Of a DNA stretch of 64,000 bases, positions 4,903-54,640 are shown piece after piece. The DNA comes from Shigella phage CM1. Location: the sequence record MK962749; one strand, 5' to 3'. Made by a program: the position numbers and the translations under genes. The notes beneath the pieces are model-generated. The model was not told the origin of the DNA, made no database searches, and worked only from the letters and a program-made list of their open reading frames with translations. Numbering within the stretch: the first letter of the stretch is position 1; each line of letters opens with the position of its first letter.

Positions 4903-6185
4903 TGCATCAAATCAAAACAACACTGTACGCACTGAACAAAGATGGCAGCTACCAACAGTGGAAAGTATTCACTGATGGCGAAAAGGTTATCGTAGAGTTT
5001 GGCAAGCTTGACGGTAAATTGCAGTACAAAGAGACGGTATGCACACCTAAAAACGTAGGTCGTGCCAACGAGACTACAGCTGAGCAACAGGCCGAGCTTG
5101 AGGCTATCAGCAAGTGGGAAAAACAAGTCCGTCTGGGGTATGTTGAAAACATGGAAGATTGCGAGCAGGGTGTTGATCTTTTACCTATGCTGGTGCATGA
5201 CTACCTGAAGCGTGGCAAGGCACTTAAATTACCTTGCTGGATCTTGCGTAAGTTAGATGGCCTTCGTCTGCTTGTTGTTTTCCAAAATGGTGAGCCTAAA
5301 TTTATTTCCCGTGGTAATAAGTCCTACCCTATTCAAGGAAAGCTTTTAGAGCAACTTCGTTCTTTCCATTCTACCACTGGGATTAAACAACTTGATGGGG
5401 AACTATACATTCATGGTCTTCCTTTGCAGAAAATAGTGTCTCTTGCTAAACGGTGGCGCACACAGGAAGAGATTCAGGCCGAGATCGATAAAGACTACAA
5501 GGCAGATAAAAAACGCCGTCATGCAGCAATTAAGGCAGGCTTATCAACATACAAAAACTTCAACAAGGTAGATATTCCTGTCGATGTTGAGCCTGTTCGT
5601 GATGATTTGCGTTACGGTGGATACTGTAGCTACGATCTGGAGTATCACATTTTTGATATTCCTAGCGACAAGGTGTGGTGGGATCCAGAAACAGAGTCTG
5701 GACGCTGCAAGGATCTTATGGATGCAGAGGATACCGTTACCACTCTGATGCTTGATCATATCAAGGTTGTTGACGCAGAGCTTGCGTACACAGTTGATCA
5801 TTGCGAAGAATCTGTTGGTATATTCATGTCCGAAGGATATGAAGGTACTATCATGCGTAATTTCTGCGGTAAATATGAGTATGGTCAGCGAACATCTGAA
5901 GCATTGAAATGGAAAAAGTTCAACGACGCAGAGGTGAAAGTTATTGACGTTGAGAAAGATAAGAATGATGAAGGTGTTCTTATCTGTGTTGACAAGGAAG
6001 GTGTTGTTGTTAAAATGAAGATGAAAGGCACGCACGAGGAGCGTAGCTATGACAGGATGCAGGAAATGATCGGCAAGTTTGTCACCTTCAAATATCAAGC
6101 AAGGACAGAAGACAACAACTACCAATTCCCTGTCGGTATCTGCGTCCGAAATGTTAACCCAGATACTTGGGAGGTTCTGGAATGA
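4902..6185 (+). CDS. ATP-dependent ligase (probable DNA ligase)
   Basis: 427 aa; motif I KLDGLR, motif IV-like EGTIMR, motif V-like LKWKKF. Confidence 0.65.
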   Translation: MHQIKTTLYALNKDGSYQQWKVFTDGEKVIVEFGKLDGKLQYKETVCTPKNVGRANETTAEQQAELEAISKWEKQVRLGYVENMEDCEQGVDLLPMLVHDYLKRGKALKLPCWILRKLDGLRLLVVFQNGEPKFISRGNKSYPIQGKLLEQLRSFHSTTGIKQLDGELYIHGLPLQKIVSLAKRWRTQEEIQAEIDKDYKADKKRRHAAIKAGLSTYKNFNKVDIPVDVEPVRDDLRYGGYCSYDLEYHIFDIPSDKVWWDPETESGRCKDLMDAEDTVTTLMLDHIKVVDAELAYTVDHCEESVGIFMSEGYEGTIMRNFCGKYEYGQRTSEALKWKKFNDAEVKVIDVEKDKNDEGVLICVDKEGVVVKMKMKGTHEERSYDRMQEMIGKFVTFKYQARTEDNNYQFPVGICVRNVNPDTWEVLE

Positions 6186-6309: not shown

Positions 6310-6807
6310 ATGAAACTTGATAAAAATGTTCAACGAAAAGCTTTCTTGGATCTTATTGGCTGGGCAGAGGGAACAACAACCCACCCTGCCACTAAATGTG
6401 GAGGATACGATGTTGTAGCATACGGGATGGACGGAAAACCTGAAATCTTTACAGATTTTTCTACGCACCCTTTTGCAAACGGTCGCCCTGGTAAAGTGTT
6501 TAACTCAAAAGGGCAAAGAACTACAGCCTGCGGTAAATATCAATTTCTTGTCAAATACTGGGAACACTACAAAAAACAGCTTAAGTTGCCGGATTTTGGA
6601 CCAGATAGCCAGGATAAGTGGGCAATCCAGTTGATCAGGGAACGTAAAGCACTTGAAGACATAGATAACGGTCATATTAAATCTGCTATACGTAAGACCT
6701 CAAATATTTGGGCTTCGTTCCCATACAACCAGTACGACCAAAATCCAAAAACCATTGACAAGTTGCTTAAGAAATTTGTAGAGTTTGGAGGTGTTGTTCT
6801 GGATTAA
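6310..6807 (+). CDS. endolysin, lambda R-like lytic transglycosylase
   Basis: 165 aa; colinear with remembered lambda R (QRKAFLD, WAEGT, GYDV, SNIWASFP). Confidence 0.85.
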   Translation: MKLDKNVQRKAFLDLIGWAEGTTTHPATKCGGYDVVAYGMDGKPEIFTDFSTHPFANGRPGKVFNSKGQRTTACGKYQFLVKYWEHYKKQLKLPDFGPDSQDKWAIQLIRERKALEDIDNGHIKSAIRKTSNIWASFPYNQYDQNPKTIDKLLKKFVEFGGVVLD

Positions 6808-6861
6808 TGATCAAAAGGTAGGCCACTCGCCTACCTTTCTACACCAGAGGTGTGTTGAGAT

Positions 6862-7623
6862 ATGACGATACATTTCTTTTTTAATGATCACTATCCTTAT
6901 TGGTACAAGGATGGCGATCTAATCTTTTGGAAACCTGGCTACAGTAGGAATGGAAATAGGGCTGGACACTACAACAAAAAGACTGGATATTTCCAAGTGT
7001 ACAATAAGCTGACAAATGTTAAACGTGGCAGACATAGGGAAATTTTTGACATGTTTTATGGATGTGTCACAGATACTTGGCATATCGATCATATCGTCTC
7101 TAAGAAAAATTCTACTAACGGAGTGCCTGTAGACAAGATAGAAAACCTTCAAATGTTGAAGCCATGGGATAACTACTGTAAGAGAGCCTTGGAAAATGTA
7201 CAAAGCAATAATACCTCTACAGTGACTGGTGTGGTATGGCTGAAAAGAGAGGGTAAGTGGAGGGCAAGTAGAAGGATAAATAGGGTAAATGTTAGGTTGG
7301 GAGATTTTGACACTTTCGAAGAGGCTAAATCTAGGATTGAATGGTCGATAGCTAACCCGGAAGAGGCTTTAAAGATAGTTCCAAACCCGCACAAGAATAA
7401 TATCCTGCCCGGTATTGATTGGTCTAAGAAAGATACCTGTTGGAGGGCACGAGATAACAAAGGAAGAAACTTAAGGTGCTTCAACGACAGGAAGTGGCTA
7501 AATCCGTGGTGGGAGGCAGTTTGTGCAAGAAAGTCTTGGGAAGTAAACTGTCTCTACGGAGAGATGTCACTAACTGAGTGGAAGTTATCCAGAGGCTATC
7601 CAAGACCTTGTGTTGAGGATTAA
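6862..7623 (+). CDS. HNH homing endonuclease with AP2 domain
   Basis: HNH core HIDHIV...N...ENLQ; AP2-like TGVVWLKREGKWRASRRINRVNVRLGDFDTFEEAKSR. Confidence 0.75.
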   Translation: MTIHFFFNDHYPYWYKDGDLIFWKPGYSRNGNRAGHYNKKTGYFQVYNKLTNVKRGRHREIFDMFYGCVTDTWHIDHIVSKKNSTNGVPVDKIENLQMLKPWDNYCKRALENVQSNNTSTVTGVVWLKREGKWRASRRINRVNVRLGDFDTFEEAKSRIEWSIANPEEALKIVPNPHKNNILPGIDWSKKDTCWRARDNKGRNLRCFNDRKWLNPWWEAVCARKSWEVNCLYGEMSLTEWKLSRGYPRPCVED

Positions 7624-41533: not shown

Positions 41534-42579
41534 GGCGGACGGAATGGGAATACTTCTCATTCTTATAACAATTCTCAAATATCGAGGCAGTGAGAGAAAT
41601 TAATAGGCCAGGCCGTTCACACAGTGGCACAACATTTGCAACCTATTTTGTGTGGATGAATGAGAATACCTATCATTGTGAGAACTGTTATCATTACGGG
41701 CAATTTAACATAATACCCATTATGCGCACCACTGGCGATACATACAGGGATTGATAACATGGGTTACTGTTTACGCACATAACAATTATATTTCTTATTA
41801 TTTGTGGGGGATATAGTTAGCAGCCAATAGATTAGATATTGACCTGCAGACTTCTGACCGTCTAGACGTCTAAACGCCCACACATCAAGGGTTATACATA
41901 CATTACTGAATGTAAACAAGGCCGCAAAAATGCTACCATACCAGTTTGTAAATTTTTCATGCAGCACTTGACAAAGAGGAGGAAAACTTGTCTGACATAC
42001 TGTGACATAATATGACATAATAGTGACACACTGGGCATACTCAACACACTGGATACGGCGGACGGAATGGGAATACTTCTCATTCTTATAACAATTCTCA
42101 AATATCGAGGCAGTGAGAGAAATTAATAGGCCAGGCCGTTCACACAGTGGCACAACATTTGCAACCTATTTTGTGTGGATGAATGAGAATACCTATCATT
42201 GTGAGAACTGTTATCATTACGGGCAATTTAACATAATACCCATTATGCGCACCACTGGCGATACATACAGGGATTGATAACATGGGTTACTGTTTACGCA
42301 CATAACAATTATATTTCTTATTATTTGTGGGGGATATAGTTAGCAGCCAATAGATTAGATATTGACCTGCAGACTTCTGACCGTCTAGACGTCTAAACGC
42401 CCACACATCAAGGGTTATACATACATTACTGAATGTAAACAAGGCCGCAAAAATGCTACCATACCAGTTTGTAAATTTTTCATGCAGCACTTGACAAAGA
42501 GGAGGAAAACTTGTCTGACATACTGTGACATAATATGACATAATAGTGACACACTGGGCATACTCAACACACTGGATAC
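41534..42579. repeat. tandem direct repeat, 2 copies of about 523 bp
   Basis: Minus-strand track ORFs 41764-42153 and 42287-42679 share an identical 96-aa C-terminal segment; likewise 41892 and 42415; both offsets 523 nt. Confidence 0.85.
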
Positions 42580-44745: not shown

Positions 44746-44962
44746 AGTGTTTTCCTCTCTCCTGGTTGTTGTGTGGGCACTTTTGCCCCTTCAAGATAAA
44801 TGTTACCTCACCCCATGGCAGATGTCAACGGTTTTTATAGTTCTTATATGACAGGCAGACCTGGTGATTGTCTCCCCCTGTTCCCAAGTGCCGCCCGTTT
44901 AATAAGAATAGCAAAAGGGGCCGAACAAGTCAACCCCAAAATCAGTACCAAAACACTTTTAT

Positions 44963-47800: not shown

Positions 47801-48100
47801 TTAGTTTGAGAAAACATCGTTCACAATAGCGATCACAATGCCGCCCACCTTGTCACGGTCAACAATGCACAAATCACCATAGATCATGTGGTAGTCTGGA
47901 TGATCTTTGACGGAATAGTCGATAAGTGTTTTCTTGTCATCCAGCTTACTAACTTCCATTCTCATAACGATATGAGAATCATCAAAGGCATTATTCCGAA
48001 AAGTCATAACCTGACCGCCAGGGCACCCGGTGATTTCCACCTCCACGCCGTCTACGATCTGACCATCAAAGAAATAAAGATTATTAGCCTGGATAAACAT
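47801..48100 (-). CDS. hypothetical protein
   Basis: ORF 47801-48121; start at second ATG with AAGGAG 8 nt upstream. Confidence 0.4.
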   Translation of the reverse strand: MFIQANNLYFFDGQIVDGVEVEITGCPGGQVMTFRNNAFDDSHIVMRMEVSKLDDKKTLIDYSVKDHPDYHMIYGDLCIVDRDKVGGIVIAIVNDVFSN

Positions 48101-48143
48101 GATCATTACTCCTTTTTGCACTGATTATTTTAACAGGGTTTAA

Positions 48144-48188
48144 ATTTACTTTATTGATGGCCCTGGAGTCAAGGCCATCTAAAAATAA
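48144..48188 (-). promoter_or_regulatory. conserved 45-bp hairpin element, copy 1 of 3
   Basis: TTTACTTTATTGATGGCCCTGGAGTCAAGGCCATCTAAAAATAA; minus-strand reading gives TTGACT-18-TAAAtT; approximate. Confidence 0.45.
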
Positions 48189-48191
48189 ATT

Positions 48192-48392
48192 TTACAGGCC
48201 TACAATCTCTTTAATTCGTTTTACTGCTGCCTCAGCGCCTTGAGGGTAAAAATTATGGTAACCAATCACGCGAGTGATACTAATCGCCGTTTGATGATCT
48301 TCATAATCACCTTTAAAGATTTCTTGACCGTCAATCAGCACGGCAATTTTTTCTTCTTTTTTGAAGTTAATAACGCGGATATTGTTGCTCAT
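48192..48392 (-). CDS. hypothetical protein
   Basis: 66-aa ORF. Confidence 0.45.
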   Translation of the reverse strand: MSNNIRVINFKKEEKIAVLIDGQEIFKGDYEDHQTAISITRVIGYHNFYPQGAEAAVKRIKEIVGL

Positions 48393-48531
48393 TTTGTTTC
48401 TCCTTTTGGAACTTTGTCTATGCGGTGGGGAGTGTCTCCCCGTTGATTGATATTATCCATATTCTGGATCGGATTGCAACACTCAGGGAGAAAAAATTTG
48501 AAAAGTTAGGCCCCAGGGATCGGGGCCGTTA

Positions 48532-48651
48532 TCAGTTACTTACAGCGATAAAATACATCCCTACGCCTAACAATATTTCAAGGGCGATGATCTCAAGCCA
48601 TACCATAACACGGCGCGCCTTATCGGTGCGGGGCTTATCCTTGGGTGTCAT
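48532..48651 (-). CDS. 39-aa membrane peptide
   Basis: Strong SD AGGAGG; MTPKDKPRTDKARRVMVWLEIIALEILLGVGMYFIAVSN. Confidence 0.35.
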   Translation of the reverse strand: MTPKDKPRTDKARRVMVWLEIIALEILLGVGMYFIAVSN

Positions 48652-48760
48652 CGTCTCCTCCTTTCCTCCTGTTAGCAGTGACGTGGTTTGCAATGGCCCC
48701 CAGGAGTATTATCACCACGCACATTACAAGAAAAATTATCTCTGTCGTTGTTCGATCCAT
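48635..48760 (-). CDS. 41-aa membrane peptide
   Basis: Internal ATG of ORF 48635-48817; MDRTTTEIIFLVMCVVIILLGAIANHVTANRRKGGDDDTQG. Confidence 0.3.
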   Translation of the reverse strand: MDRTTTEIIFLVMCVVIILLGAIANHVTANRRKGGDDDTQG

Positions 48761-48870
48761 TGTTATAAAATTCCTTAAGATCAGGCCTGAAAATAAAGCT
48801 TTCGTTATTGAATCCATCCCGCCAGGCGGCTGGCTTCAAATCTTCACTAAAGGGGTTAATTAACGTGGCA

Positions 48871-49242
48871 TTATTTAAACGGCTGGTCCACATATTTTCT
48901 ATTCCTCTCAAATAGGCGATCCGCCTCAGTTAAACAAATCTCATGGGCGTGATCTCTGGTTTTAGCTTCATCGAAAACCTGTTGTGCAAGGCTGCAACGT
49001 AGGGAGACTGGAAGATCGCTGTAGTAGGCGTTGACAAATGTTTGAGCGTCGTACAGGTCTGAAAATACTTTACCCTTTCTATTATTCCCCTTGTCAACAA
49101 TTGCAAGGATAACCAATACAATAGTTGCAACCACTCCCAGGAAAATAGATATAACAAACCATAGAAAAGCGGATCTACCCATCTTGCCAGCGATCCAGGC
49201 GTTGAACAAGGCAACTACTACAGCCAAAATAATAAATTCCAT
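48871..49242 (-). CDS. membrane protein (two TM helices)
   Basis: ORF 48871-49275; start at MEFIILAVVVALF. Confidence 0.45.
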   Translation of the reverse strand: MEFIILAVVVALFNAWIAGKMGRSAFLWFVISIFLGVVATIVLVILAIVDKGNNRKGKVFSDLYDAQTFVNAYYSDLPVSLRCSLAQQVFDEAKTRDHAHEICLTEADRLFERNRKYVDQPFK

Positions 49243-49306
49243 TCTATGTACCTCTTTTGCAGTTCTGTTTAACAATAAGGCGGCAAATATGCCGCCTGTT
49301 ACCTGA

Positions 49307-49687
49307 TTAAAAATTATCGCCGTAAATCTTTCCGCTTTCTGCCCACACCACCACGCGGGGCATGTTATCCCATACGTCTTGTTTTAGATTTAACGCGTGC
49401 AATTCTTCTGTGGTGCTCATACCAGGCACGGGCTGATTGTATACTGCAAAACGACCACCTGCATAATCATAAGCTAAAGTCAAATCGCACTGAATCATTT
49501 TCTTGATCATGGCGTTAAGCATAGCGTTAGCCGCGTACTGGTCACGTTTTAAAGGCAACTCTTTGATTAGTTTGCGATAGTTTTCGATATGGTCGCACAC
49601 TGTTTCACGTGGAAGATCTTTCATATCTTCACGGAATGTAACCAGGTTAAACATAACGGTGTCAATAGCTTTAGTAGTGTTTTTCAT
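49307..49687 (-). CDS. hypothetical protein
   Basis: 126-aa ORF; promoter-like TTGCAA-17-TATTAA and leader hairpin upstream. Confidence 0.45.
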   Translation of the reverse strand: MKNTTKAIDTVMFNLVTFREDMKDLPRETVCDHIENYRKLIKELPLKRDQYAANAMLNAMIKKMIQCDLTLAYDYAGGRFAVYNQPVPGMSTTEELHALNLKQDVWDNMPRVVVWAESGKIYGDNF

Positions 49688-49778
49688 GATGTTTTCCTCT
49701 TTGTTTTGTGTGGGGGCAAGTCATCTCGCCCCCTTAAGTTTTAATATAGCAGGTTTTTAGATTATTGCAACACTTTAT

Positions 49779-50402
49779 TTATGAAAAACTCATCTCTCCA
49801 TATTCATCCACATCAAACCGCCAATCATTGGCTTCAATAAGGCCGATCAAGTTTTCGGTAGTAAACTGTTCAAGATAGGCCTCCTCCAGGTCTACATAAA
49901 CCTTGCGGGATAGCTCCCGTACCGTCTCGGTGATCAGCTCTTCCAGATCTTCCACTTTATTTTCTTGTTTTGCGGTCAGATCTAGCCAGGCAGTATCAAT
50001 ATATCCGCTTACAGTGTTTTCATGGCTGTAATGGCTGTACTTGTCGCGTTCAACACTGGCTGATAGTTCGCCATCGTGCATTGTGCCGAACAAGTGACGA
50101 ATTGATCGGAACTTGGTCAGGGCCTTGACTTTACGCAAGAATTTCTCTAAGTCTACATTTTCAGCACTAATTGACGCGCCATCGCCTTGACACCAAAAGC
50201 CGGACCAATGTACATCGGTATCTTCAAGGCCGTACTCTGGAAAAACTTGTTCTTTATAATATTCAATTACACTTTCTGCGAAAAAATCCTCTCCGCTGTG
50301 TTCTTCTCTTTCGCGGACCATTTCAATAGCTTTTTCTTTTTGTTCGTCGGTCAGCACGTCGAAAGATAAATTGCAACCTGTGGTAATGTTAACGGTAGTC
50401 AT
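49779..50402 (-). CDS. hypothetical acidic protein
   Basis: 207-aa ORF; promoter TTGACA-16-TATACT and leader hairpin GGCGGGAAAACTTCCCGCC upstream. Confidence 0.5.
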   Translation of the reverse strand: MTTVNITTGCNLSFDVLTDEQKEKAIEMVREREEHSGEDFFAESVIEYYKEQVFPEYGLEDTDVHWSGFWCQGDGASISAENVDLEKFLRKVKALTKFRSIRHLFGTMHDGELSASVERDKYSHYSHENTVSGYIDTAWLDLTAKQENKVEDLEELITETVRELSRKVYVDLEEAYLEQFTTENLIGLIEANDWRFDVDEYGEMSFS

Positions 50403-50485
50403 GATATTTTCTCCTATTTTCTTTGTTAGTGGCGGGAAGTTTTCCCGCCTGTGTGTTTAAGTATACTTATTGAGGCTTACTTGTC
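50403..50485 (-). promoter_or_regulatory. sigma70-like promoter plus 5'-leader hairpin
   Basis: Minus-strand reading: TTGACA, 16 bp, TATACT, then GGCGGGAAAACTTCCCGCC, then GGAG RBS; approximate. Confidence 0.5.
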
Positions 50486-50737
50486 AACACTATTTTTTAA
50501 ATTATTGTGGCGTAAAATGTTTAGAATCTCTTCAACGTCATCAACACGGCGGCAATTTTTAAACGCTACCAATTGCCCCATGATTTTAATCACTGGGCGG
50601 CCTTGCCAGTGCCCCTGGAGAAAGCGCGCCTTGACTTTATCGGTGGAACTATCACGCCACCAAATAGCCTTGTTGTTGCAGTAGTAAAAATTATTCAGGA
50701 CAACATCAACTTTATCAAAATTTTTTAATTTACGCAT
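50477..50737 (-). CDS. hypothetical protein
   Basis: 86-aa ORF. Confidence 0.45.
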   Translation of the reverse strand: MRKLKNFDKVDVVLNNFYYCNNKAIWWRDSSTDKVKARFLQGHWQGRPVIKIMGQLVAFKNCRRVDDVEEILNILRHNNLKNSVDK

Positions 50738-50949
50738 GGCGTTTACTCCTTTCTCTCTTTGATGTGGTTAGTATAGCTAACCTGTTTAAGATGTCAAGCT
50801 TTAAATAAAATCACTGTCAATGATATTTTTAACGCCATAAAACGGCCCTAAGCGATGTTTTCAGGTTAAAGGGGGGCGATTGCATAGGTGGGGCCTTTTT
50901 GGCGCTTACAGGGCCAACCAGGGGCGCTATTCGTAGGATAGAAATAAAA

Positions 50950-50990
50950 AGCCCCGCACAATGGCGGGGCGTTGGTTGTTATTTGTCTTT
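50950..50990 (-). terminator. rho-independent terminator (minus strand)
   Basis: Minus-strand hairpin GCCCCGCC-ATTGT-GCGGGGC followed by TTTTTATTT; approximate. Confidence 0.6.
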
Positions 50991-51164
50991 ATGGCGGTAT
51001 CGTTCTGCCTGTCGTTCACGTTCCAAAAGTAGGCCAGGCAATTTACGATCATAATGATTCCGCCAGATCTTCCCAAATCTTTTTGGCTTATTCAGTTTAT
51101 TGTTGCGCTGGCGACGTTCCGGCAACTCTTCGGAATCATGAGGGCGCTTTACAATTTTTCGAAA

Positions 51165-51518
51165 TTAATTTTCATAACTTCCCCCCTTACTGATCTCAAT
51201 ATTTGCCTGAATCGCCCGGATACGCCGTTTTATAACCTCCTGATCCTTGCAATCATATCCCCAAAAGTCTACGATTTTTGCGCCTCCAGCCTTTAGGCGG
51301 TATAGTGTTTCTTGCATCTTGTAGGCCGGGATCGGTCGCGGTGTTACCTGGTCGCCCTTCTCATTCTTGTACTTGATAATGTAGTCTTCATTGTCGTTGA
51401 ATACCCAAAATGGGTATTCTGTGAGCGCGTTGCTCTCTTTTTCGTTTTTAGATTGGATCTTGTTTACAATTAAAGCCGTAGCAATAGCGCCAATAATAAA
51501 ACTTGCCCCACTGATCAT
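51165..51518 (-). CDS. membrane-anchored protein
   Basis: ORF 51165-51536; start at MISGASFIIGAI with AAAGGAGAAAG. Confidence 0.45.
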   Translation of the reverse strand: MISGASFIIGAIATALIVNKIQSKNEKESNALTEYPFWVFNDNEDYIIKYKNEKGDQVTPRPIPAYKMQETLYRLKAGGAKIVDFWGYDCKDQEVIKRRIRAIQANIEISKGGSYEN

Positions 51519-51594
51519 GTTACTTTCTCCTTTCATTGTATTGATAAACTATCTTTATAGATGGCCCTGCTACCAGGACCACCGAAAAAACAGT

Positions 51595-51840
51595 TTATTT
51601 GACGATACCGACAAAACAGATCCCGCCTTCCCCTATATAGGCAATATCGGTAATTTTATAATTTGTCAAGATCCGCGTGTTCAGCTCATTAATAAAATCT
51701 GTCATCGCGTTGGTGTAGTTGTCTTCCGTGTCTAAGGCATAATCCCAGGTGTAAACCTTTTTACGTCCGAAGCCTTTTACCATGATACGGGCGCTTTTGG
51801 TGTTGGTAGGGGCATAATATTTGGTGATTAGTGCTGCCAT
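51595..51840 (-). CDS. hypothetical protein
   Basis: 81-aa ORF. Confidence 0.45.
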   Translation of the reverse strand: MAALITKYYAPTNTKSARIMVKGFGRKKVYTWDYALDTEDNYTNAMTDFINELNTRILTNYKITDIAYIGEGGICFVGIVK

Positions 51841-51882
51841 GGTTTTAACTCCTATGCATTAGTTCAGTGTTAACAGTATAAA

Positions 51883-51927
51883 GTTTACTTTATTGATGGC
51901 CCTGGAGTCAAGGCCATCTAAAAATAA
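51883..51927 (-). promoter_or_regulatory. conserved 45-bp hairpin element, copy 2 of 3
   Basis: Same GATGGCCCTGGAGTCAAGGCCATC hairpin with T-rich flank; approximate. Confidence 0.45.
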
Positions 51928-51929
51928 TC

Positions 51930-52280
51930 TTACTCGTTTTCTTCCAGCTCCGCAAGCTCTTCTTTTGCTTCTTCCAACTCTGTCTGTAATTCCTGGTATT
52001 CTTCATCGTCCTCAATATCCAGGCTGTCGATGTAGTCGCTAAATCCGCAGCGGTAAGCGATAGGATCTAGCTCTTTGAGGATACGCGACGGAAGAAAAGA
52101 AATGTTTCCGATCATAATTTCGCCGTAGATCTCGTCTAACCATTCATCATAGTTTTCGTCGTACTTGTCCTCGTCGATTTCAAAGTTATCGATCTTGTCT
52201 TCAAGTTCTGCAATCTGTTTTTTCAGGGCGGCGATCTGCAGGGCTTTTTCTTCGGCGGTCATAGTGATGGAAGTATTCAT
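51930..52280 (-). CDS. highly acidic coiled-coil protein
   Basis: 116 aa, D/E-rich with heptad-like N-terminus; promoter TTGACA-17-TATAAT and leader hairpin upstream. Confidence 0.5.
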   Translation of the reverse strand: MNTSITMTAEEKALQIAALKKQIAELEDKIDNFEIDEDKYDENYDEWLDEIYGEIMIGNISFLPSRILKELDPIAYRCGFSDYIDSLDIEDDEEYQELQTELEEAKEELAELEENE

Positions 52281-52360
52281 AATGTTTTCTCCTTTTGGTG
52301 TTCTGGGAAGTTTTCCCGTTTATGTGCTTAGTATTATACTGATTTAAGTTAGCTTGTCAA

Positions 52361-52480
52361 TTAAAAGTTTAAGAAAAATTTTGCGAAATCATTGGCGCTA
52401 CTCATCAACATTTGCGCCAGGATGTAACCAATGATGCAAACGATAATAGTTACCTTTGTGTGCTGGCGTGTAGTGCTCAT
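52361..52480 (-). CDS. 39-aa membrane peptide
   Basis: Strong SD AAGGAGG; MSTTRQHTKVTIIVCIIGYILAQMLMSSANDFAKFFLNF. Confidence 0.35.
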   Translation of the reverse strand: MSTTRQHTKVTIIVCIIGYILAQMLMSSANDFAKFFLNF

Positions 52481-52508
52481 CTTCAAGCCTCCTTTTTAAC
52501 TGGGATTA

Positions 52509-52553
52509 GTTTACTTTACTGATGGCCCTGGAGTCAAGGCCATCTAAAAATAA
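52509..52553 (-). promoter_or_regulatory. conserved 45-bp hairpin element, copy 3 of 3
   Basis: Same GATGGCCCTGGAGTCAAGGCCATC hairpin; approximate. Confidence 0.45.
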
Positions 52554-52555
52554 AC

Positions 52556-52951
52556 TCAATAAGTTTTTAGTACTTTCCCGTCCAATCTGTCAAGCTGGAT
52601 CTCGATAGCTGCAGAAAACCTATTGTAAACCACATCGCCCAAGGAGTCCAGCCAATCTATGACGTTATACACCTGCTCTTTATTCTTGCAAGTCCGGATC
52701 CGTTTCATTACGTAAGACGGATCAATATTAGCGCTCTCGTTGTTGTGGTCATGCTCCTGGCCTGCTGCATTAGTTATAGATTTTACAACCACCTGAAAAG
52801 GCTTTAAGGTGCCTTTTGCGTTCATCTCACGCGCTTTTGCGGCGCGGTTGTTATATGTTACACAACGGCGGCAAATGTTGACCAAATGCATGTCAATAAT
52901 TTTTTCATCGTTTGCCAGTTCGTTCATGATGCGGCGTACGTTCTTATTCAT
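52556..52951 (-). CDS. hypothetical protein
   Basis: 131-aa ORF; upstream TTGACA-16-TAAACT and hairpin GGCGGGAATGTTTCCCGCC. Confidence 0.45.
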   Translation of the reverse strand: MNKNVRRIMNELANDEKIIDMHLVNICRRCVTYNNRAAKAREMNAKGTLKPFQVVVKSITNAAGQEHDHNNESANIDPSYVMKRIRTCKNKEQVYNVIDWLDSLGDVVYNRFSAAIEIQLDRLDGKVLKTY

Positions 52952-53033
52952 GATCTTTTTCCTTTGTGTTGGCGGGAAACATTCCCGCCTTTTGTGATTA
53001 GTTTACTTGAATTTTGCAGCGTGTCAACAATTT

Positions 53034-54419: not shown

Positions 54420-54640
54420 ATATAGAAATTTTAAAAATCCATTTCTGAAAACGAAAAATCGATTTCGTTCCCAAAAATTTCAGGTCGAGCTCCGGAACGA
54501 TTTCCAGAAAATCCGATTCAGAAAACGAAAAACAGATCGAGTACTGAGAAATTTATCGAGAAAAATTTTCAGAAAATTCAATCTTTGAAACGAAAAACAG
54601 ATCGAGTACCCGGAAAGCTGTACCGCAACCTCAAGATAGT
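54420..54640. repeat. array of three imperfect direct repeats
   Basis: GAAAACGAAAAA(T/C)(C/A)GAT(T/C)... three times at about 65-80 bp spacing, each preceded by AATCC(A/G)ATT; approximate. Confidence 0.6.

Follow-up and report, generated by a model that had tools for sequence, protein, structure and literature searches.

Genes and repeated element in the early region of phage CM1

The window analysed here is a 64,000-nt stretch of the genome of Shigella phage CM1 (sequence record MK962749). Its minus strand carries a repeated element of about 50 nt, present in four direct copies inside 4.4 kb, each of which begins at the stop codon of the gene upstream. With 99.9% identity to Escherichia phage I29 in this region, CM1 is assigned to Vequintavirus (rV5-like phages), and more than 100 further Vequintavirus phages match the region at 94-98% identity. 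A set of 17 'Campylobacter phage' records (MG0656xx, UNVERIFIED, labelled Campylobacter jejuni) is also ~92-95% identical to E. coli rV5-like phages in this region, and their host label looks doubtful. The element stands in a long minus-strand early cluster of small open reading frames (ORFs) that is equivalent to ORF177-195 of rV5. Seven proteins encoded in its neighbourhood all fall into PHROGs of unknown function, and none contains a Pfam domain.

The copies are named A to D. Copy C (52508..52556, minus strand) begins at the TGA stop of ORF 52556..52951, which is similar to rV5 ORF194. Copy B (51882..51930, minus strand) begins at the TAA stop of the ORF192-like ORF 51930..52280 and precedes ORF 51595..51840. 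The latter is ORF191-like and ends with the TAA at which copy D (51547..51595, minus strand) begins, upstream of ORF 51165..51518. Copy A (48143..48191, minus strand) begins 1 nt past the TAA stop of the ORF179-like ORF 48192..48392 and lies upstream of ORF 47801..48100. In the hairpin formed by the element, pairing starts with the last base of the stop codon or 1 nt further on.

A 25-nt core, TGATGGCCCTGGAGTCAAGGCCATC, occurs exactly at plus-strand positions 48155, 51894 and 52520, where 0 occurrences are expected from shuffled sequences. The original prediction, made by reading the sequence, had placed the element near 48144, 51883 and 52509, just beyond minus-strand stop codons, and both the loci and the placement are recovered. 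No further match to the core with up to three mismatches is found in the window. Copies A-C are directly oriented and identical over ~45-62 nt, the repeat finder returning one 62-nt family of three members. In their minus-strand alignment the identity begins 1-3 nt past the stop of the upstream ORF, covers TTATTTTTAGATGGCCTTGACTCCAGGGCCATCA(A/G)TAAAGTAAA(C/T)T plus a short GTTAA, and ends well ahead of the next ribosome-binding site. Of the two variable positions predicted, (A/T) and (T/C), the second does vary in the window and the first is invariant there. The count of three is right for the near-identical copies; a fourth and diverged one, copy D, had been overlooked and was found by a relaxed search. 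It has the same fold and no TTGAC.

A blastn search with a 53-nt version of the element finds it in 346 places of 120 phage records, mostly three per genome, and one record only (KKE7M, see below) is not from Vequintavirus. About 120 relatives hold copies A-C at matching positions, and copy D is found once per record in 117 Vequintavirus records. In copy D of vB_Eco_Alma (OV101294, ~5500-5600 of the locus) there is an extra G in the 5' arm and an extra T in the 3' arm. Alma is otherwise 99.8% identical to EdH4, and the extra bases are either sequencing errors or a real variant.

The element is not listed among the 33 promoters and 20 terminators of rV5 (PMC3606486, Table S4), and the EdH4 and Alma records, which do annotate terminators, have no annotation at its position. 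Rfam has no matching family. A search of 5,426 complete E. coli genomes gave no match, and an origin in the host is rejected. Most of what pattern scans retrieved from IMG/VR and from JGI metagenomes were chance palindromes, and a covariance model upheld Vequintavirus-like contigs only. The literature searched contained no paper on a Vequintavirus transcriptome and no data on transcript ends.

Hairpin structure and its conservation

When ~65 nt of the minus strand are folded for each copy, the sense-strand RNA forms a structure of ~50 nt composed of a 10-bp A/U lower stem, an internal loop of 2 nt (5' side) by 3 nt (3' side), a 10-bp G/C upper stem and a tetraloop. The hairpin described originally does exist, and the palindrome is longer than its G/C part: a second 10-bp stem pairs the T-rich run before the G/C hairpin with the A-rich run after it. 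In copies A-C (upper stem-loops at 48156-48179, 51895-51918 and 52521-52544, respectively, minus strand) the arms GAUGGCCUUG/CAGGGCCAUC form the upper stem, capped by the tetraloop ACUC. In copy D the upper stem is GGUGGUCCUG/CAGGGCCAUC with the loop GUAG, and the lower stem, different in sequence, still pairs. Folding energies are -19.8 to about -25 kcal/mol for the sense RNA (z about -5 to -6) and -9.2 to -16.5 kcal/mol for the antisense, the values for copy D being -24.3 and -9.2 kcal/mol. The antisense folds much worse because two pairs that are G.U on the sense strand are A.C on the other one.

Base pairing was surveyed in 39 sequences, 33 of them distinct, taken from 18 genomes or contigs. 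Standard pairs occupy 98.2% of the cells in the 33 distinct sequences, and compensatory double changes affect five pairs in 31 cells, with exchanges such as U-A/C-G, A-U/U-A and G-C/A-U. In a control where the 3' partners were slid by 1-3 columns pairing was 35-58% and the covariation was almost gone. The lower stem covaries instead of keeping its sequence, and the C/T difference in TAAA(C/T)T belongs to a covarying G-C/A-U pair, of which it is one partner. One-sided changes in the upper stem (A-U to G.U, C-G to U.G, G-C to G.U, and U.G to C-G in copy D) preserve pairing on the sense strand only.

A covariance model trained on 18 copies retrieves the four copies from the window and nothing else, and likewise precisely four from the complete rV5 genome; all lie on the coding strand. 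The model scores 74-83 bits in sense and 31-41 bits in antisense: 83.3 bits in sense for copy A and 82.3 for copy B, 80.6 against 38.4 for copy C, and 73.8 against 31 for copy D.

Within copies A and C the nucleotide diversity amounts to 0.02-0.03, compared with 0.07-0.12 in their flanks; for copy A it is 0.019, against 0.068 and 0.083 on its two sides. Diversity in copies B and D is similar to that of the flanks, and much of the variation in D is compensatory. The most invariant part, divergent copies included, is the base of the upper stem with the internal loop, UUUU-NN-G(A/G)UGG...CCAUC-NAU-AAAG. The structure of the sense-strand RNA is very likely under selection. Changes compatible with G.U pairing on one strand only point to an RNA structure, and neither to a double-stranded DNA palindrome bound by a dimeric protein nor to a cruciform.

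Recombination at the element

The 626-bp unit that extends from copy C to copy B (51919..52544, minus strand) is present or absent as a whole among relatives. It contains a 39-amino-acid ORF (52364..52480), promoter P192 (52333-52360; TTGACA-16-TATAAT, a 12/12 match that is listed in rV5 Table S4), a hairpin in the 5' untranslated region (5'-UTR; 52304-52318), the ORF192-like gene and one copy of the element, all on the minus strand. The exact interval is missing in ECP26, ime, magaca, phiWec189 and an IMG/VR contig, and blastn finds it in 114 records against 123 that hold the region. Each of the five cassette-less sequences has a single hybrid copy, with the 5' flank of copy C and the 3' flank of copy B. 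The cassette-less genomes are polyphyletic on trees of either flank, and the divergence between ime and the three-copy EdH4 is 0.3% downstream of the element and 2.8% upstream. Two copies in one genome can also have a loop variant in common, as in EdH4 (C and B, ACAC) and rV5 (B and A, ACUU), a pattern of gene conversion.

Phage KKE7M (PQ356295), a Justusliebigvirus of the Stephanstirmvirinae, has at 6581-7048 of the locus a 436-bp Vequintavirus module composed of a P192-like promoter, a 5'-UTR hairpin, an ORF192 homologue and the element, the last with 100% identity along 50 nt. In the relatives Antha and Paula the gp234 gene stands in place of the module. Its left junction lies in the -35/spacer of the promoter and its right junction in AATAAAGTAAA of the element, and the two junctions fall within shared promoter-like sequences of 21 nt and 11 nt. 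A divergent Vequintavirus-like phage, represented by a 136.8-kb metagenome contig (OLOT01000016.1, positions 978-1470), has the ORF192-like gene directly between two element copies, with neither the 39-amino-acid ORF nor P192. The upstream copy of this contig has TTGACA-17-TAAACT and the downstream one lacks the -35.

The copies very probably serve as junctions for homologous recombination, which would account for gain and loss of the cassette, for gene conversion and for transfer of a module between subfamilies. This role of the element was not foreseen in the original prediction.

Putative promoter within the element

The promoter scan of the minus strand finds the hexamers first read in the element, TTGACT-18-TAAA(C/T)T, at 52537-52508 in copy C, 51911-51882 in copy B and 48172-48143 in copy A. 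The putative -35 TTGACT (52532-52537, 51906-51911 and 48167-48172, respectively) sits in the apical stem and loop, while the putative -10 TAAAYT (52508-52513, 51882-51887 and, as TAAATT, 48143-48148) forms part of the 3' arm of the lower stem. An A/T-rich stretch precedes the hexamers and the next start codon follows 30-45 nt downstream. TTGAC is kept in most copies of the A-C type, and several genomes have TTGACA in place of TTGACT. The TTGACA-17-TAAACT of OLOT01000016 lies in a remodelled apical stem, and the ORF192-like gene that follows directly has nothing else resembling a promoter. In KKE7M the -10 region of the element replaces in register AATAAAGTAAACT of the TTGCAA-16-TAAACT found in the relatives, which is followed by a 5'-UTR hairpin, as at other strong promoters of this region.

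The hexamers suggest that copies A-C may hold an active promoter, a tentative proposal whose chances we put somewhat below even. A sigma70-type promoter in these copies may re-initiate transcription for the downstream gene. The hairpin itself would be a 3'-untranslated or intercistronic structure, because the putative start site lies downstream of it and only transcripts of the upstream gene include it. The repeated promoter that was originally proposed is thus possible for copies A-C. It is not the common denominator of the family, since copy D and the second OLOT copy keep the hairpin and have no -35, which weighs against a promoter, and the invariance of 'TTG' is equally explained by a distal box for RNase III and the loop-closing pair. 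A hairpin over the -35 as a general trait of promoters in the region was considered and rejected: of 19 minus-strand sites with a match of at least 10/12 that were folded, one or two were positive (e.g. 44081).

Proposed processing by RNase III and alternative explanations

Taken together, the data suggest, with a probability of roughly 0.55, that the element is a Vequintavirus-specific intercistronic 'punctuation' cassette in an early region of ORFans transcribed by the host RNA polymerase, where it would be processed in the manner of RNase III sites. Such processing is the leading mechanistic reading, and our analysis gives it a little less than an even chance of being correct. Host RNase III would cut read-through early transcripts once, on the 3' side of the internal loop between GGCCAUCAAU and AAAGUAAA, as at the early sites of phage T7. 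The predicted cuts lie between 52518 and 52517 in copy C, 51892 and 51891 in copy B, 51557 and 51556 in copy D, and 48153 and 48152 in copy A (all minus strand). After the cut the upstream cistron would end in a protective 3' hairpin, and its fate would no longer be coupled to the downstream cistron.

Five T7 early sites were folded for comparison. R0.3, R1 and R1.1 have a lower stem (A/U-rich in R0.3, otherwise mixed), a 2x3 internal loop, a 9-10-bp upper stem and a tetraloop, and in these three the presumed cut falls where the 3-nt 3' side of the internal loop ends. When the model of the element was run on both strands of 7.8 kb of T7 early DNA, its sole hits were R0.3 and R1, with E-values of 1.4 and 2.4 that are individually non-significant, so that the likeness is one of architecture and not of homology.

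RNase III sites need about two helical turns of double-stranded RNA (~20-22 bp), at least 11 bp from the cut to the tetraloop, U-A and U.G pairs in the distal box, and A-U or U-A at position 2 of the proximal box, where a G/C pair blocks RNase III binding; an internal loop limits cleavage to one strand and leaves a protective 3' hairpin (PMC1540722, PMC3867540). The sense strand of the element provides 10 + 10 bp, ~21 bp overall, with its 2x3-nt loop right below the 10-bp upper stem and tetraloop. In the register of R1.1, copies A-C have a distal box of U.G then U-A beside the loop-closing pair, A-U at proximal-box position 2 and 11 'pairs' from the cut to the tetraloop. Their proximal-box position 4 is a non-Watson-Crick A.A, where R1.1 has U.C.

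Several observations, the lack of significance of the two T7 hits among them, weigh against this interpretation. The T7 cleavage coordinates (Dunn & Studier 1983), which we take to be 890, 1468, 3138, 5887 and 6448, are corroborated by the folds only. Proximal-box positions 1 and 3 of the element are U-A and G-C, the optimum being G-C and A-U. In copy D position 2 is G.U in the proximal box and C-G in the distal box, changes expected to weaken recognition, and the divergent OLOT copies are altered in the apical part of the hairpin, distal box included. On the side of the promoter, the match of 9/12 with an 18-bp spacer is at chance level (50 hits in the scan against 30 expected, in 14 kb), natural variants include TTTACT, TTGATA-20 and spacers of 19-20 bp (overall range 17-20), and the strong promoters of the region are TTGACA-16/17-TATAAT, mostly hairpin-free. 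For recombination, a deletion between copies was considered for rV5_ev146 (LR699804), which has lost copies C and A, and was rejected. Its two deletions (~0.5 kb and ~6.1 kb, with microhomology of 13-16 nt) have breakpoints at ~52961/52468 and ~51031/44869, outside the element.

The most probable of the other explanations, still an unlikely one, is that the element is a repeated sigma70 early promoter whose palindrome acts as operator for a dimeric phage or host regulator, or as a cruciform, to switch three promoters jointly. The hexamers behind their A/T-rich stretch, the distance to the start codon, the frequent retention of TTGAC, with TTGACA in several genomes, and the replacement in register of a promoter-like sequence in KKE7M are all in line with it. 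Against it stand the hairpins that have no -35, in copy D and OLOT copy 2, the variable spacer and the chance-level match. A palindromic operator is rejected on the further ground that the asymmetric changes are all G.U on the sense strand (A.C opposite) and the lower stem covaries; among the three functions suggested originally, a regulator-binding site in double-stranded DNA is accordingly disfavoured, departures from the palindrome being tolerated on one strand only. An RNase processing site is the best supported of the three, given the compensatory changes, the G.U asymmetry, the 98% pairing, the T7-like geometry and the distal box of copies A-C. A terminator or attenuator, at which the hairpin would stop or pause the polymerase so that each ORFan forms its own transcription unit, is less probable than the operator-bound promoter. 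The element does occupy the terminator's place in a moron-type module, P192, ORF192 and the element having moved as a unit into KKE7M, and the promoter-early stem-loops (PeSLs) of T4-type phages reportedly reduced downstream expression as strongly as rrnB T1 (PMC2839356). The terminator scan is nonetheless negative on both strands, in agreement with the original assessment. There is no U-tract, and the 3' flank, AAUAAAGUAAA in sense and UAAAAAUAA in antisense, is A-rich, so that the RNA:DNA hybrid would not be weak. True intrinsic terminators with U-tracts occur nearby and look different, and neither an A/U lower stem nor a fixed 2x3 loop nor a conserved U.G would be expected in a terminator; an intrinsic terminator is rejected.

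An equally improbable alternative to termination is that the hairpin remains uncut and resembles the REP sequences found 3' of bacterial genes, tuning the upstream ORFan by holding up 3'-5' exonucleases or the ribosome that terminates at the stop codon. The hairpin starts there in each of the four copies and in relatives, and this position, its stability of -20 to -25 kcal/mol and its movement with the upstream gene into KKE7M agree with such a role. A simple barrier needs no fixed internal loop, no 10-bp upper stem with tetraloop and no U.G/U-A pairs, and the element has no similarity to E. coli REPs or to anything in the E. coli genomes searched. The idea that a phage RNA-binding protein (translational repressor, antiterminator or processing factor) recognises the region of the internal loop is very unlikely. 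The base of the upper stem and the internal loop are indeed the most invariant part across all copies, as such a site would have it. That region coincides with the contacts of RNase III (proximal box and cleavage site), and no candidate protein emerges among the neighbouring genes, which are of unknown function and without Pfam domain.

RNase III-type processing could be combined with the putative promoter. The distal box (UUG.../...CAG) is in DNA the -35 hexamer and the 3' arm of the lower stem the -10, so that processing upstream and re-initiation downstream would be hard-wired together. One 50-nt sequence would then be read twice, as an RNase III site in RNA and as a promoter in DNA, and would also be a portable recombination module that carries ORFans between subfamilies (Vequintavirinae to Stephanstirmvirinae). 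This full combination is doubtful.

Other features of the early region

A composite of different sequence is found at 44905-44937 (minus strand). A G/C hairpin followed by TTTT, GGGGTTGACTTGTTCGGCCCC at 44917-44937, is terminator-like, and its loop holds TTGACT with a TG-extended -10 located 17 nt further on (44905-44933). It is a PeSL-style terminator overlapping a promoter and is unrelated in sequence to the element.

A second hairpin family, (G)CGGGAA-NNN-TTCCCG(C), occurs in minus-strand transcripts at 50433-50447, 52304-52318 and 52973-52987 (3 found, 0.11 expected). These hairpins lie ~10 nt past the -10 of the strong rV5 promoters P185, P192 and P194, at the 5' end of the predicted transcripts, and the family looks like a 5'-end stabiliser. 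Comparable small hairpins follow promoter-like sequences in KKE7M, Antha and Paula.

Two other repeats were observed in the window. A pair of direct repeats of 300 nt, 100% identical, lies at 41534-41833 and 42057-42356, 523 nt apart, near a switch of strand and GC skew at ~40-42 kb and probably in the 'non-coding' stretch of the rV5 paper. In the early region, at 54421-54616, there are three tandem-like A-rich units of 57 nt (GAAAACGAAAAA...), spaced by 74 and 65 nt and 63-77% identical.

Implications

The element is a conserved and previously unannotated sequence with a putative regulatory role and a probable role in recombination, and it fits known principles. The rV5-like phages are widely isolated and present in collections for phage therapy and biocontrol of E. 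coli, while the regulation of their early genes is essentially uncharacterised. If the interpretation is true, their early ORFan transcripts are punctuated by T7-style RNase III signals, a convergent solution in an unrelated lineage, and PeSL-type recombination at a regulatory cassette extends beyond T4-like phages. It would also explain the swaps of small accessory genes within the genus and across subfamilies. The element predicts cleavage at four places, transcription starts at three and the excision of one 626-bp cassette, and might be used as a compact natural part that insulates cistrons in engineered phages.

Comparison with known systems

The closest parallel in organisation is the PeSL, described in the T4-type phages RB49/phi1, PST and nt-1 (Arbiol et al. 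2010, PMC2839356; Comeau et al. 2014, PMC4122927). A PeSL comprises a stop codon, an A/T-rich stretch, sigma70-like -35 and -10 sequences, a stem-loop with G-T pairs that possibly covers the -35, a Shine-Dalgarno sequence and a start codon (PMC2839356). PeSLs recur among ORFans and mediate deletion and insertion of cassettes (PMC2839356, PMC4122927). The element shows the same anatomy from stop codon to Shine-Dalgarno sequence (legend of Fig. 2 of the PeSL paper), with a putative promoter in copies A-C, and is likewise repeated in a plastic region of small ORFans of unknown function, where direct copies 0.3-4 kb apart flank cassettes that vary between close relatives and a hybrid is left at the junction.

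The element differs from PeSLs in several respects. It belongs to Vequintavirinae, which are not T4-like, and blastn of the element reveals no sequence similarity to PeSLs. There are four copies of it, three near-identical, instead of dozens that are loosely similar. Its hairpin is two-tiered, of ~21 bp, covarying and encloses the entire putative promoter, in contrast to a polyG/polyC hairpin. One copy is promoterless and the others are sub-consensus. PeSLs have been described as a trait of T4-like myoviruses, for which promoter and terminator activity and mini-circles were demonstrated.

The T7 sites R0.3, R0.5, R1, R1.1 and R1.3 are, like the element, intercistronic hairpins of early mRNA made by the host RNA polymerase. 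As folded, R0.3, R1 and R1.1 share with it the 2x3 loop, the 9-10-bp upper stem and tetraloop and, in the case of R0.3, the A/U-rich lower stem. The length of about two helical turns is also common to both, as are, for copies A-C, the distal box of U.G and U-A and the A-U at proximal-box position 2. There is no sequence homology, and cleavage of the element is a prediction. The T7 sites are not repeats that mediate exchange of cassettes and have no sigma70 promoter within the hairpin; T7 promoters do stand near several of them.

Morons are modules of promoter, gene and terminator inserted between phage genes, as defined by Hendrix and colleagues. The module formed by P192, the 5' hairpin, ORF192 and the element is similarly autonomous and, in a phage from a second subfamily, has taken the place of a different small gene. 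It differs from a moron in that the element at its 3' end is no intrinsic terminator and that exchange takes place through short homologies in promoter-like sequences, not at arbitrary sites. Bacterial REP elements are short imperfect palindromes which, as part of the RNA, can influence how stable the message of the upstream gene is or how well it is translated. The element is also a short imperfect palindrome repeated just past stop codons, and is distinguished from REPs by an unrelated sequence, a fixed orientation, a precise two-tier geometry and no transposase of RAYT type.

The element is PeSL-like in anatomy and behaviour and lies outside the PeSL family in the strict sense. Mechanistically, its hairpin resembles the RNase III signals of T7 more closely than it does a terminator.

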